A stretch of 64,000 nucleotides of DNA from an uncultured Chloroflexia bacterium (lineage in GTDB: Bacteria > Chloroflexota > Anaerolineae > B4-G1 > SLSP01): NCBI GenBank assembly GCA_963751345.1, contig CAVVUS010000014.1, positions 32,001-96,000 of the forward strand, in the 5' to 3' direction. Both the position numbers and the translations under genes were made by a program. The notes under the pieces are model-generated. The model had not been told where the DNA came from and did not search any database. It saw only the letters and a list, made by a program, of their open reading frames with translations. Below are positions 9,757-64,000 of this stretch, piece by piece. The number at the start of each line of letters is the position of its first letter. Within the stretch, counting starts at the first letter, position 1.

Positions 9757-10218
9757 GTGGGGGCAGATGATCTCCCCCCGACCGGTGGCACCTACGGCCT
9801 TGTATTAGAGCTTGGAGGCGCCTCGCGGCTGCAGATCGGGGCGCTGGGATCGTGGACCTTTCCCGAAGGTACCTACCTCTACGTGGGCAGTGCGTGGGGT
9901 CCCGGCGGTCTGAGGGCGCGGGTCGGGCGCCATCTACGAGGTAGCGCCGCGCTGCGTTGGCACATCGACTATCTGCGCGCCGCGTCCGATCCCGTAGCCG
10001 TCTGGCTCGCGGTGGGGCTGCGGGTTGAGTGTACCTGGGCGCAGGCCCTGGCTGAGGGCCCTGCTGCTGAGATCGTGGTCCCGCGTTTCGGCGCCTCCGA
10101 CTGCAGCTGCCCCAGCCACCTTTTCCGCATTGAGCAAGATACGTCTGCGGCGCTCGCGCTCCCCGGTTCCCCATATCGCCTTTCTGTGAGACCAACGGAC
10201 GGCGACGCTAATCGCTGA
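9757..10218 (+). CDS. GIY-YIG/DUF123 (Uri superfamily) endonuclease
   Basis: GTYGL, YVGSAWGPGGLRARVGRH, WHIDYL and FGASDCSCPSHLF motifs. Confidence 0.88.
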   Translation: MGADDLPPTGGTYGLVLELGGASRLQIGALGSWTFPEGTYLYVGSAWGPGGLRARVGRHLRGSAALRWHIDYLRAASDPVAVWLAVGLRVECTWAQALAEGPAAEIVVPRFGASDCSCPSHLFRIEQDTSAALALPGSPYRLSVRPTDGDANR

Positions 10219-59290: not shown

Positions 59291-59340
59291 GAAAGTTGGC
59301 GTCACTCTATGTGTGTACCAAAGGCCGGAGGCAGTCACGT

Positions 59341-60018
59341 ATGGCGAAGGTGTTAGTGGTCGACGACGACGAAAGACTACTCAAGATGTTGCAGCGTACC
59401 CTCTCGTATGAAGGCTTCGACGTCATCACAGCCGGCGATGGGCTCGAGGCTTTGGCGCGGCTGGGCGAGCTGCCCCCCGACGTGATCATCCTGGATTGGA
59501 TGATGCCCCGGCTTGATGGCGTGGGTGTCCTCGAGGTCCTTAACATGGAGCACAATCAGACGCCGGTGCTGATGTTGACGGCACGTGACGCGGTCCAGTA
59601 CCGTGTGGAAGGATTGGAGCGAGGAGCAGACGACTATCTGGTCAAGCCGTTTGAGCCCATCGAGTTGATCGCCCGGGTCCGTGCGCTTCTGCGCCGTGTC
59701 GGCCAGGATACGCAGACCACATTGGTGTTCGACGACCTCAGTCTGGACCCATCGAGCCGCGAAGTCAGCCGGGGAACGCGCAAGTTCGAGTTGACGCCCA
59801 CTGAGTTTGATCTCCTGCATCTCTTCATGCGCCATCCACATCAGGTATTGGAGCGTGGGCAGATTCTGTCGCAGGTCTGGGGCTATAACTTCGCCGGCGA
59901 CGACAACATCATCGAAGTCTATGTCGGCTACCTCAGGAAGAAGACCGAAGCCGAGGGCGAATCACGGTTGATCCAGACCGTCCGCGGCATCGGATATGTG
60001 CTTCGGGAGCAGATTTAG
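59341..60018 (+). CDS. OmpR-family response regulator (MprA-like)
   Basis: VVDDD, LDWMMP, LTAR, KPF, EVYVGYLRKK and QTVRGIGY motifs. Confidence 0.95.
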   Translation: MAKVLVVDDDERLLKMLQRTLSYEGFDVITAGDGLEALARLGELPPDVIILDWMMPRLDGVGVLEVLNMEHNQTPVLMLTARDAVQYRVEGLERGADDYLVKPFEPIELIARVRALLRRVGQDTQTTLVFDDLSLDPSSREVSRGTRKFELTPTEFDLLHLFMRHPHQVLERGQILSQVWGYNFAGDDNIIEVYVGYLRKKTEAEGESRLIQTVRGIGYVLREQI

Positions 60019-61538
60019 TGTCTATACGGCTTCGCTTAACCTTACTCTATAGTGCGATCCTCGCACTTACCTTGATTGCGTTCAGCACGGTGTTGTACGC
60101 GACGCAAGCGCGGTACACCCTGAACATCGTGAAACGTGATCTGGATTCCAATGCCAGGCAAGTAATGCTGGCGTGGACTCGCTTCCAGACAGCTTGGGAT
60201 GCACGCGGTATGCCGCCCCGGCAGGCACCGGTCTCTCCGGACGTCTCCTATGGCGAGCAGGCTCAACAGGCTCTTCAGCCACTCGTGAGGGGTGAGCTCG
60301 CCCGTGATTCGGTTCACCTTCTCGATGCTGGAGGAGAGGCACTGGCCCTATCGATGAACGATCAGAGCCCGACGCTGCCCATCAGTCAGGAAGGATTGAC
60401 AAAGCTTCAAGCCGGCAGCGCGTGGATGGAGATCAGCCAGGGGGAGGATTCGCGATGGCTGATCTTCAACCTCCCCGTCGTCACCTCGATGACACCGCAT
60501 GCGGACGGCAGTGTCACGCCGAACGTCATCGGGATTGTGCAGCTCGCCCGCTCCCTCGCGGATCGGGACCGTTCGCTGCACTCGATGGGCATCACCCTGG
60601 TCGTAGGGAGTCTCACCACGACCGTGCTGGCCTTTGGCGCGGGGTGGGTGCTCGCCGGAACGACACTCAAGCCCATCCAAAAGATCACGGAGACGGCCCA
60701 GGAGATCGGCCAGTCGCAGGATTTCTCATCCAGGGTCGAGCACGACGGGCCGAACGATGAGTTAGGGCGGCTGGCGACGACCATCAATAGTATGCTGGCC
60801 CGGCTGGAGGGCTCATATCAACAGCTCGCCCACGCGCTGGAGGTCCAGCGCGACTTCGTTGCGGACGTCTCCCACGAGCTCAGGACGCCCCTAACCACGG
60901 TCCGTGGCAATCTCGCGCTTATGAGACATGACCCGCCCCTGCCCGCGGATGAACAGGTGGAAATCCTGGACGATCTTATCGCCGAAAGTGCCCGACTGAG
61001 CCGTCTGGTCAGCGATCTTCTGACGTTGGCCCGCGCCGACGCCGGTCACCGGCTGCCGGTGGCGCCGGTTGAGGTCGAAGGCATCGTGGATGACGTATGC
61101 CGGCAGGCCAATCTGCTCGCACCTGACCGCGAGGTCACCTGCGATTTCGGGGCGCCATCACCAAGCATCGCGAACGAGGACGCCCTGAGACAGGTGCTCC
61201 TTATCCTTACGGACAACGCGATCAAACACGGCGAGGGTCCCATCCGAATCGCCACACGAGAGAACGACCATCATATCCGTATCAGCGTACAGGACAGCGG
61301 GCCCGGCATGCCCGAGGACCTACAAGCACGGGTCTTCGACCGCTTCTATCGCGGGGACGCTTCACGCTCGACGCCAGGCTTTGGCCTGGGACTCTCGATT
61401 GCCCGCAGCTTGACAGAGGCCCAGGAAGGCACGATTTCAATGGAGAGCCAGGCAGGGGTAGGAACCACCTTCATCGTGGAGCTTCCGCAGGCGGAAGGTA
61501 ACGTGACGAGTGAGGATCTGGTATTGCCGGATGACTGA
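60018..61538 (+). CDS. Sensor histidine kinase (HAMP, HisKA, HATPase)
   Basis: Two TM helices; DVSHELRTPL, NAIKH, DSGPG and GFGLGL motifs. Confidence 0.95.
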   Translation: MSIRLRLTLLYSAILALTLIAFSTVLYATQARYTLNIVKRDLDSNARQVMLAWTRFQTAWDARGMPPRQAPVSPDVSYGEQAQQALQPLVRGELARDSVHLLDAGGEALALSMNDQSPTLPISQEGLTKLQAGSAWMEISQGEDSRWLIFNLPVVTSMTPHADGSVTPNVIGIVQLARSLADRDRSLHSMGITLVVGSLTTTVLAFGAGWVLAGTTLKPIQKITETAQEIGQSQDFSSRVEHDGPNDELGRLATTINSMLARLEGSYQQLAHALEVQRDFVADVSHELRTPLTTVRGNLALMRHDPPLPADEQVEILDDLIAESARLSRLVSDLLTLARADAGHRLPVAPVEVEGIVDDVCRQANLLAPDREVTCDFGAPSPSIANEDALRQVLLILTDNAIKHGEGPIRIATRENDHHIRISVQDSGPGMPEDLQARVFDRFYRGDASRSTPGFGLGLSIARSLTEAQEGTISMESQAGVGTTFIVELPQAEGNVTSEDLVLPDD

Positions 61539-61595: not shown

Positions 61596-64000
61596 TCAAT
61601 TGTCGTGGATTGGCACCCCCACCAGCATCCGGCTCTCCACGTCGACCAGCGGATCGACCTCACCGGCTGCCGCGGCCCGGGCGAAGACGAGGCCGGGGTA
61701 TTTTGCCCTCAACGCCCGCGTCAGCACGCTGAAGCTCTTGGTCACATTTCGCTCGCGGAAGGTCGCGCCCATCTGCTCCCACTGAGTCAAGATACCGGCC
61801 AGCCCCCGTCGCGCACCCGCGACGCAGGCGAACAACTCCTCAGGCGTCAACCCCTCGCTGTAGCCATGCCGCACGATGACAACACGGCCATGCTCGTCGA
61901 CCACGGGGCCGCGCCCCGCCACGAGCCACGCCATCTGCTCCAGTCCTGCGCCGCGCGCCTTGATCATCAGGATCTGCGGCCCAAGGTCGGCGGCCGTGGT
62001 GTCCGTCATGGCAGCTAACGCTTCTTGAACGGCCTCTCCATACATCTGCCACAACGCCGAATCCGTTGAGTCGGGCCGAGAGGGGAGCGGTGTGGTCTCC
62101 CCGACGAAGGGGCTCAGGGACGCGCCAGAGACTTTGACCGTCTCGAACCCACGCTGCATCAGTCGCTCGACAGCCAGCATCGCCGCACCCACGCTCTCCT
62201 CCCCCGCTCCCCTTGGAAGCAGCTTGGAGAGTGCGTCGGTCACGGTGGCAGCCGTGACAAAACCGCCGGAAGTGTTGACCGGCTGCCCGACGATCTCCGA
62301 GATCTCCGCCAGCCCCGCCGGATCGAGGCTCAGCTTCGCCAGCCCCCAGAGCGCATCCAGCGCGGGCACCAACGAGGCAAGCAGCCCGGGATCGCGCATC
62401 AGATGGCCGGCGACGGAGAGTCGCTCCCCGGCTTCCTGCTGGGCCGCTTCCGTGATAGGCAGGAAGACGGCGGCCTGGTCGCCGTCGAAGTCGGCATCCA
62501 ACCACCTGCACAGTGCAGGATGGAGGTGAAGCGCGTCATCCGGAACCCGGACGGGATGGAACGCCAGGAGTGCGGTGGGTGTCAGGGTCGGCGCGCGGTT
62601 GATGTAGACCCACGAGTGGGCCATCACGGCGTCAAGCACCTGCGAGGCGCGCTCGCTCCTGGCTGGGACGGCCTTCCCGTCGCCGGTCTCCCGTACGACG
62701 AGGGGACCAAAAAGCGCCCACGCCATCTCCTCGGGCATGCCGATCTGTTCCAGCGTCAGCTCGGCGGCGGGCGCCAGCACCGTGCGGGCACTGAAGAGCT
62801 CGCGGGCGCCGAGCCGTAACTGGACCGGCGTGAGGAGCGCGTCGAAGAGGGCACGGACGTGGCGTTCGAGCTGCGCGGTCGCGTCATCTACCAAGGTCTT
62901 GGGCGTCTGTGCGGCGAGCATACGCCTCACCCTGTCGTTGGCCTCGACCACCGCGCGATAGAGCCGCGGGAGCTCGTCCGACGCCTCCCACCAGCCTCCG
63001 GGCGGGAAGAGTACCTCCCTGAGGCCACCAACACGTTCCCTCTCGCCCGGATCGCCGATCTCGGTCAGGCGACGCTCGGGCAGCCACGGATGGGGGACCG
63101 GTCGCGCCAGCTTCAGAGCATCCTCCTGTGGCGGCGCGAAACGGAACGCCAGGCCGTTCTCCCCCAGCTCTGCCTCGATCCCCGCGACCCGAAGCCGGTC
63201 GGCCAGCTCCGCCAACAGTGGGGTCGGCGGAGGGGCCTGGGCCACAGGACCGGCGGCCAGCCGCTCTGCCAGCGTGCCGGCATCCTGCCCGCCCACTGCC
63301 GGGTGTTCAGATTCTCGCGGATGATCTCAAAGGCGCCCAGATCCCGCAGCATGAAGGTCTCCATCTCGCCCGTGCGCTGGCCCCATCGCTCTCCCGTCAG
63401 GACCAAGCGTCACGCAGCTTGTCCTTGGCGAGATGGTACAACCGCCCCCAGTAGACCCAGCCGACGGTGCTCGGCGCGTCGAGCGGCGGGCCATCCTTGC
63501 CCTGCGTGAGCGTCACCATGCCCGACTCGGGCAATCCGGCAGCGACCAGGCGCGCGCGAAGCTCATCCGCCGAAGGCGCACCAAAGGGCGGTACGATCGC
63601 CGGGTTCGCCTCGGCCTTCGCGACGCTGCCCAGGACCGCCTCGCGGATCTGTCCGAAGTTCATCCGCCGGTGCAGGTTGGCGAAGTTGAAGACCAGGTCG
63701 ACCGGCGTGCCATCGGGAAGATGCGGCATCCGGTCGTCGGGCAGGATCTGGCCGACCACCCCCTTCGTCCCGTGGCGATTGCTCATCTTGTCGCCGATCC
63801 GGAGCGCATAGGGGGTGTCGAACCGCCGCGCGCACGACTCGCTGACGACGATGGCATCCTCGTACGTCCCCGGCCCCCAGGAGACAAAGGCCGTGAGCAG
63901 GTTGCGACCGGCCCAGAAGTCCGGCGACAGCAGGGCGTCCGGCTCGTTGCCGGTCTGAACCCACGCGGGCTCCGGCATCTGCTGCACGATCCACTGCCTC
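61596..64000 (-). CDS. Miniaturised, divergent RNA polymerase beta-beta' fusion-like protein (5' part outside window; frameshifts near 63400 and 63300)
   Basis: beta motifs [52 protein letters not shown]; beta' motifs LYRAVV, NRAPTL, DADFDGDQ (DADFDGD at 62478-62498), EGLT...GARRGL. Confidence 0.85.

Follow-up and report, generated by a model that had tools for sequence, protein, structure and literature searches.

The end of the window, by which we mean the whole 64,000-nt stretch analysed here (C14:32001-96000, on contig 14 of the assembly G000 of an uncultured Chloroflexia bacterium), carries part of a gene for a much shortened, single-chain RNA polymerase in which beta-like sequence runs into beta'-like sequence (the mini-polymerase). 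It belongs to a conserved and selected family of confidently folded two-barrel enzymes with an intact active site, and it is coupled genetically to a gene for an extracytoplasmic function (ECF) sigma factor and to an ECF-type promoter. We propose that the locus is an autonomous two-gene module in which the ECF sigma factor would direct templated RNA synthesis by the single-chain polymerase; judged from sequence comparison and a structure model, this function has about an even chance of being correct. A preliminary description of the window had recognised a minimal polymerase, which stands, and had missed the full extent of the gene and its frame breaks, the loss of the trigger loop, and the cognate ECF sigma factor and promoter. 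The DNA around the window end was analysed as the flank L001 (C14:91001-108000), in which a position equals the window position minus 59000.

The beta and beta' motifs quoted in the preliminary description were all located in the last 2.4 kb of the window, on the minus strand and in the order given there (Table 1), with Pfam matches far beyond chance: RNA_pol_Rpb2_6 at 63397-63999 (E = 2.5e-40) and RNA_pol_Rpb1_2 in the 566-aa open reading frame (ORF) at 61596-63296 (E = 3.7e-20). Matches to Rpb1_1 and Rpb2_7 were weak and under the cut-offs (Rpb2_7, E = 0.0078). Of the claim that about 800 codons carry these motifs, the motifs hold but the single frame does not: they are spread over three frames, separated by breaks near 63395-63414 and 63285-63298. 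Because the 566-aa ORF carries the beta C-terminus followed by beta'-like sequence, the fusion of beta to beta' does lie inside one uninterrupted ORF, as had been claimed. The alignment drawn by eye at this junction, KLARPVPHPWL with ELASPTAHIWF, was reproduced by profile alignment, but is not significant alone (E = 0.15). In the upstream piece, EDAIVVSE lies only 14 residues ahead of the following 12-residue motif. That piece continues past the window end to C14:96377 and then, across a third frame break, to an ATG at C14:96745 (L001 5745). Three-frame translation and tblastn with the intact homologue P0001 together give one gene in four pieces, about 1,054 codons long, which occupies C14:93596-96745 of the minus strand (the summary of the analysis puts its extension at about 2.7 kb beyond the window end).

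Intact homologues with the same compact architecture are numerous, which argues against a collapsed assembly. In a search of longer proteins with the 566-aa ORF, 8,000 candidates were scored and 430 matched at E <= 0.001; the best 120 of the 430 are all 993-1,067 aa long and all have both Rpb2_6 and Rpb1_2. When all cluster representatives were searched, 177 matched at E <= 1e-30. The only names among the best 120 of 430 are "hypothetical protein" or lists of Pfam domains, and a listing of cluster members yielded no further names. The family profile matches solved bacterial beta chains at 7e-87 and beta' chains at 7e-56, and on these sequence matches the single-chain polymerase is of bacterial beta/beta' descent, as had been supposed. 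It is also a second, non-housekeeping polymerase, as separate canonical genes are present in G000: rpoB spans about 143.9-147.8 kb of C10, and rpoC lies near 452 kb on C11 as a 1,472-aa open frame. The canonical rpoB is followed by genes resembling those for ribosomal protein S7 and EF-G, rpoC being on C11 and not adjacent, and the listed relatives likewise carry rpoB and rpoC on separate contigs. No dedicated model for the family was found in Pfam, NCBIfam or PADLOC. The literature searched gave no account of the family or of a sigma-linked mini beta-beta' enzyme, the supplements on the genomic context of ECF groups and Iyer & Aravind 2012 being outside its coverage.

Residue conservation was scored in 180 full-length family members. 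The catalytic Asp triad is retained in 176, 178 and 177 of these, and the equivalents of K1065, H1237, R678 and R425 in 171, 163, 178 and 158, respectively. R323 is present in all 180 and H324 in 173, and the residues of the motif GDKxxNRHGxKG are kept in 157-180. An equivalent of D814 occurs in 158 members, and one of E813 in only 119. Retention of the active-centre motifs, asserted earlier from comparison by eye with E. coli sequences, is therefore confirmed; they are intact in the window copy and near-invariant in the family save for the E813 equivalent. The pairwise ratio of nonsynonymous to synonymous substitution rates (dN/dS) is 0.21-0.27, not near 1, although with dS at 1.2-1.4 the ratio is rough. 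By this sequence measure the family is under purifying selection.

A structure of P0001, which is 66-77% identical to most of the window gene, was modelled with AlphaFold2 from an alignment of 121 family members. The model has a predicted local distance difference test score (pLDDT) of 94.6 and a predicted template modelling score (pTM) of 0.93, and its top Foldseek matches are bacterial RNA polymerase beta and beta' chains (E from 1e-23 to 1e-18); viral structural matches are weaker and mostly to separate subunits. Against E. coli RpoB the family profile aligns with residues 119-147 (weakly), 474-580, 652-707, 790-822, 1054-1147 and 1177-1341, and against RpoC with 76-128 (weakly), 266-515 (1.4e-43), 587-640, 703-795 and 1321-1354 (weakly). 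The coordinates of E. coli regions used here come from this alignment, and their names (lobe, flap, rudder and so on) are those in general use for the enzyme.

Both double-psi beta-barrels are retained in profile and model, as are the F-loop and the fork, the latter with a shortened fork loop, and both barrels keep their metal-binding and substrate-binding residues. The clamp-helix hairpin is retained as helices 589-612 and 617-638 of the model, aligning with beta' 266-309, and the bridge helix as a 33-residue helix (976-1008), about 48 residues past which the chain ends. The profile alignment has no counterpart of E. coli beta' 806-1320 (trigger loop, SI3 region and jaw), nor of beta 823-1053 (flap) and 148-473 (lobe), and no rudder, rim helices or most of switch 2 were found in profile or model. 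The flap is read as lost because no more than about 10 residues separate one half of the beta barrel from the other. The single chain has 1,056 residues against 2,749 in the E. coli pair, or about 38%. Two points of the preliminary description do not hold in the light of this anatomy. The beta part is not the C-terminal half of beta; it is a trimmed version of the whole, with a weakly aligned N-terminal segment. The presence of "nearly all" of the beta' core was overstated, given the missing counterparts of beta' 806-1320 and the rudder.

The gene directly upstream of the polymerase gene lies outside the window, and its stop codon overlaps the polymerase ATG as ATGA. Its product contains Sigma70_r2 (PF04542, 2.2e-16) and r4_2 (PF08281, 5.3e-13) domains, having only sigma-2 and sigma-4, and scores 108.5 bits against TIGR02937 (cut-off 42.9 bits); by these domain matches it is a bona fide ECF sigma factor. 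In 14 of the 15 distinct loci that include upstream DNA (a count that leaves out L011, where there is none), a homologous sigma gene directly precedes the polymerase gene on the same strand, at spacings from a 4-nt overlap to about 81 nt. The pairs span Anaerolineae, Chloroflexia, Dictyobacter and Planctomycetota. The sole exception is a Planctomycetota copy of 877 aa (L127 118-2751; G545:C115) that starts at the equivalent of about residue 150. All-against-all comparison of the ORFs of 10 loci revealed no third conserved gene that might supply a trigger loop or an alpha-like subunit, only sigma and polymerase being common outside close kin. An anti-sigma gene is likewise not conserved next to the sigma gene in the compared loci, where the mini-polymerase is the only conserved neighbour. 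In ten aligned sigma factors (alignment A2), an acidic linker followed by VPAWMVD..LGPE lies between sigma-2 and sigma-4, a feature that we take to be unexpected for an ECF linker. This conserved linker may adapt the sigma factor to the mini-polymerase. A co-fold of residues 440-1056 of A1, a truncated construct, with the sigma alignment A2 scored 0.01 against a mark of 0.32 and was counted neither way on binding. As a lead only for the upstream sigma factor, the ECF271 group has a Chloroflexi member and a mechanism given as not known in the available part of its description (PMC8999054).

A DNA element of the form TGAACYTT-N11-12-CGGTGTC is present about 10-40 nt from the start region of the sigma gene in 13 of 13 assessable loci. 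What looked at first sight like conserved residues upstream is this element, lying just before the sigma start. It combines a GAAC-type -35 element and a GTC-type -10 element, a form that we take to be that of an ECF promoter. The 5.4-Mb genome contains the strict form only once, at the operon, and a reversed control gave none. A looser form gave 13 sites in G000 against 8 in the control, which is no enrichment, and a third form, TGAACYT-N13-15-GGTGTC, gave 4 sites, the operon included, against 0 in the reversed control; the three extra sites are at C4:32336(-), C11:356632(+) and C27:101567(-). Among relatives, the looser form is found at the operon only in G019 and G002 and at three sites, one being the operon, in G015; no site of the promoter form was found in G178 and G241, because their -35 element differs by one base. 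Since the motif is essentially confined to its own operon, the sigma factor appears to be autoregulatory, with no visible regulon past that operon, and the conserved promoter is presumably used by the sigma factor encoded behind it.

In the proposed module, the sigma factor would recognise TGAACYTT-N11-12-CGGTGTC before its own gene, and the host core polymerase carrying this sigma factor would start expression of the operon. The mini-polymerase would then dock the same sigma factor on its clamp helices, which in normal beta' are the main sigma-docking site, and would synthesise RNA on a template by the ordinary two-metal mechanism. Synthesis would not involve catalysis or proofreading by a trigger loop, and would have to do without the surfaces of flap, lobe and jaw that ordinarily serve pausing, termination and factor control. 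Such trigger-loop-free synthesis has a precedent in YonO, which works efficiently although it has no trigger loop (PMC5467207). More tentatively, the pair may form a portable, self-contained system: a single chain of about 1,050 residues, programmed by an ECF sigma factor and independent of alpha, omega, trigger loop, flap, lobe and jaw, would work in a self-amplifying circuit from the module's own promoter. If so, it would rank as the smallest sigma-dependent enzyme of the cellular RNA polymerase lineage and would show the minimal working core of that lineage.

Several observations weigh against the proposed module. We infer both sigma binding by the mini-polymerase and its enzyme activity from sequences and a model. 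The clamp helices vary, with P616, L619 and L627 the only positions there that are at least 90% conserved, and at beta' R275, R293, E295 and Q300, presumably contacts for sigma, the family consensus departs from the E. coli sequence. The flap, which anchors sigma region 4 in the normal holoenzyme, is deleted, and a promoter-defined regulon beyond the operon is not visible with the strict motif in this genome or with the looser form in relatives. The module is also rare and patchy across phyla. Genomes that carry it number 5 of 22 in the same genus (G000 included), 0 of 19 from sister genera of the order, 3 of 401 in a sample of the window's phylum (G000 included) and 4 of 301 in a sample of the phylum of a Phycisphaeraceae carrier (carrier included), the two large samples being scored for two candidates per genome; because of this rarity in genus and phylum samples it is, on genome sequence, dispensable. 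Finally, a copy in Dictyobacter kobayashii has in-frame stops, the N-terminally truncated Planctomycetota copy (L127) has no upstream sigma gene, and the gene studied here has more frame breaks than the assembly-wide rate predicts.

It is possible, though we think it unlikely, that the sigma factor serves only the host core and that the mini-polymerase is just the product whose expression the operon regulates, a sigma-free enzyme for special templates (single-stranded DNA, RNA or primed hybrids), engaged in primer-making, RNA-copying or tailing in the manner of QDE-1-like two-barrel enzymes. The loss of flap, lobe, jaw, rudder and trigger loop has removed most of the surfaces for the downstream duplex, hybrid separation and sigma-4 anchoring; the promoter motif, being unique to the operon, defines no regulon; and the sigma factor keeps the standard ECF core-binding regions, as would fit use by the host core. 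Yet the model retains a clamp-helix hairpin that has no obvious role but factor docking, and operon linkage in 14 of 15 loci across phyla is tighter than is usual for a regulator and its target. Conserved defence or replication partner genes were not found nearby either, and a defence system was rejected on a PADLOC search that gave no match for the polymerase and only a chance-level match for the sigma factor.

Whatever the family does elsewhere, the gene in this genome could be a dead relic, a decaying copy with real frameshifts, and we regard this as doubtful. Each of the three junctions needs one added base and none has a long homopolymer; three breaks in 3.2 kb compare with about 0.9 expected (Poisson estimate for three or more, about 0.06); damaged copies occur elsewhere, in D. 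kobayashii and in the truncated Planctomycetota form; and the gene is patchy in the genus. Against decay, every catalytic motif is intact in the window copy. The expected rate was estimated from 115 stop-to-stop ORFs of at least 250 aa taken from the many-contig same-genus assemblies G019 and G015, of which the 54 with a best G000 match at least 55% identical were kept, some of them maybe antisense shadows. Thirteen of the 54 are interrupted in G000, with 20 frame changes in 71 kb, and some single ORFs have 3-4 changes each. Even the essential canonical rpoB is split in this assembly, into overlapping frames of 723 and 624 aa (C10:143861-147767). A GH92 gene near the polymerase is split into two overlapping ORFs (L001 8041-9426 and 9389-10369; C14:99041-101369) covering Pfam profile positions 1-193 and 188-464, likely through one more single-base assembly error. 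The other few-contig assembly of the genus, G002, also has its copy in pieces, whereas the copies in the many-contig assemblies G009, G015 and G019 are intact. We read the breaks as assembly noise because rpoB, the GH92 gene and 13 of 54 ORFs are broken as well, and favour assembly error over decay because other ORFs carry as many changes and the pieces between breaks are 66-88% identical to P0001 and free of stop codons. The practical point for this genome is that its three frame breaks are probably single-base assembly errors.

That the mini-polymerase is a decoy core in the anti-sigma position, sequestering the sigma factor on its clamp helices in negative feedback, is very improbable: ECF operons normally carry an anti-sigma gene downstream of sigma, a place held here by the polymerase gene behind an autoregulated sigma factor with no anti-sigma gene conserved in the loci, and the clamp helices are kept, but a decoy has no need of an active site, and yet the Asp triad and beta-side basic residues persist in 157-180 of 180 members at a dN/dS of about 0.2, while a loop of sigma and decoy without another promoter target would have no output.

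Bacterial beta/beta' descent, a chromosomal location, a dedicated ECF sigma factor and one chain of about 1,050 aa occur together in none of the known enzymes that we compared. The mini-polymerase has the same two barrels, catalytic residues, fork, clamp helices, F-loop and bridge helix as canonical RpoB/RpoC, but forms a single chain of about 1,050 aa, against two canonical chains totalling about 2,750 aa, lacks lobe, flap, rudder, rim helices, trigger loop and jaw, and is non-essential, patchy and accompanied by its own sigma gene. Measured as a canonical RpoB/RpoC it has the active site, but not the trigger loop, flap and lobe, the sole-copy status or the score, P0001 falling far under the NCBIfam equivalog cut-offs for rpoB (TIGR02013, 171.6 against 801.15 bits) and rpoC (TIGR02386, 119.1 against 963.5 bits). 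The beta::beta' fusions of Helicobacter and Wolbachia, reported for Helicobacteria in the available part of PMC2919709, have the same order of beta then beta'. Those fusions are full-size housekeeping enzymes of about 2,840-2,890 model positions, unlike the mini-polymerase, which scores 175.4 against 4,632 bits with the full-length fusion model NF011417 and 164.6 against 5,372 bits with NF007172. Orf6 of the yeast killer plasmid pGKL2 is described in the same partial source (PMC2919709) as an Rpb2::Rpb1 fusion of 982 aa with about half of the coding sequence deleted. It resembles the mini-polymerase in fusion order and size, a likeness by description only, but is eukaryote-type, without sigma and on a cytoplasmic linear plasmid, whereas the mini-polymerase is bacterial-type and sigma-linked.

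YonO of the Bacillus subtilis prophage SPbeta is described in PMC5467207 as a one-chain enzyme of about 100 kDa that has no trigger-loop homology and acts as an efficient DNA-dependent RNA polymerase. Membership of the two-barrel superfamily, the single chain and the missing trigger-loop homology are common to both enzymes. YonO has few active-site residues in common with multisubunit enzymes and is prophage-borne; the mini-polymerase is plainly derived from beta/beta', chromosomal and sigma-linked, so that among YonO-like traits it shows the single chain without trigger loop, but not the remote similarity or the prophage location. The non-virion enzymes of AR9 and phiKZ and the tail-tape-fused enzyme of P23-45 are, in the descriptions available in part, two-barrel polymerases without alpha and far from the cellular core. 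They are phage-encoded and much more divergent than the mini-polymerase. The AR9 enzyme works with a sigma-like specificity subunit. Over 1,159 columns, the P0001 model can be aligned with a phage "minor tail protein" at a template modelling score (TM) of 0.39. The nearest relatives of the mini-polymerase are thus the canonical subunits by sequence, Orf6 and YonO by architecture, and by logic the phage two-barrel enzymes with their own specificity factors.

If active, the mini-polymerase would be a natural answer to how little of the beta/beta' core suffices for templated RNA synthesis, and would show whether sigma-directed initiation works without flap and trigger loop. Consisting of one gene and one sigma factor, with a confident fold, the system is a tractable model for how two-barrel enzymes work and how compact polymerases, YonO, Orf6 and the phage enzymes among them, have evolved, and it is a candidate small, orthogonal, sigma-programmable polymerase for engineering. 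Hundreds of entries called "hypothetical protein" could be given a name, and the upstream ECF group would gain a defined partner.

Table 1. Coordinates of the polymerase gene, its motifs and the upstream sigma gene (window positions unless marked L001)
Feature	Position	Strand	Remark
ECF-type sigma gene, about 206 aa	L001 5745-6362	minus	outside the window, directly upstream of the polymerase gene
Gene piece 1	L001 5745-5383	minus	P0001 residues 1-121
Frame break outside the window	L001 5377-5386	minus	one base missing relative to intact homologues
Gene piece 2	L001 5377-4415	minus	P0001 residues 123-443
Gene piece 3	L001 4394-4299	minus	P0001 residues 450-481
Gene piece 4	L001 4284-2608	minus	P0001 residues 487-1054
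Beta-like catalytic barrel without flap insert	63415..64000	minus	Rpb2_6; extends past the window end
19-residue beta motif of the preliminary description	63943-63999	minus	
24-residue beta motif of the preliminary description	63838-63909	minus	
First 12-residue beta motif	63760-63795	minus	
RMNFGQ	63649-63666	minus	
Second 12-residue beta motif	63418-63453	minus	
Frame break between ...HLAKDKL and GERWGQ...	63395..63414	minus	one base missing relative to intact homologues
Short piece in the third frame, 32 residues	63299..63394	minus	Rpb2_7-like start and match to beta GQRFGEME
GQRTGEME	63359-63382	minus	
Frame break between ...NLNTR and DAGTLAERL...	63285..63298	minus	one base missing relative to intact homologues
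Uninterrupted ORF, 566 aa including the stop codon	61596..63296	minus	beta C-terminal tail, then beta'-like half
PTPLLAELADRLRVAGIEAEL	63165-63227	minus	
KLARPVPHPWL	63081-63113	minus	
Clamp helices	62832-62963	minus	in the 566-aa ORF
INRAPTL	62583-62603	minus	
DADFDGDQ	62475-62498	minus	catalytic
Bridge-helix region	61758-61850	minus	in the 566-aa ORF
C-terminal motif resembling beta' residues 1321-1354	61611-61685	minus	in the 566-aa ORF

The neighbours of the polymerase gene in this genome are ordinary, belonging to the sulfatase, GH92, DinB and PIG-L families. At window positions 59296-61538 on the plus strand, two ORFs, one response-regulator-like (240 aa) and the other histidine-kinase-like (506 aa), so judged by translation, converge on the polymerase gene. 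The 57-nt gap between it and the kinase-like ORF was scanned for a terminator, and none was found. In L012, the closest relative, similar ORFs adjoin the polymerase gene.

The patchy spread of the module fits horizontal transfer, and no mobility genes were seen. A phage or plasmid origin was considered and rejected: at least 80% of the query was covered in 0 of 72,556 plasmid and 0 of 50,697 phage records, the PHROGs matches were only to full-size beta and beta' families, and in IMG/VR the two subunits were encoded only by separate genes, of about 900 aa for beta and about 1,000 aa for beta', at 20-39% identity. On two of these phage contigs (L047 5419-11111 and L050 5284-11196), compact genes of the beta-like and the beta'-like kind, again of about 900 aa and about 1,000 aa, lie side by side and are 22-24% identical to the family.

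Source names among the listed homologues also mention Ktedonobacteraceae, Hydrogenedentes and Poribacteria. In the copy of D. kobayashii Uno11 (L015 at about 9980-10060; NZ_BIFS01000001.1), a garbled stretch lies just before the NRAPTL region, with two TGA and one TAA codons in the match; either the gene is disrupted or two sequencing errors compensate each other. Other protein atlas clusters bring Rpb2_6 and Rpb1_2 together in a single protein about 1,220-1,790 aa long, which may point to further fused beta-beta' families of intermediate size.

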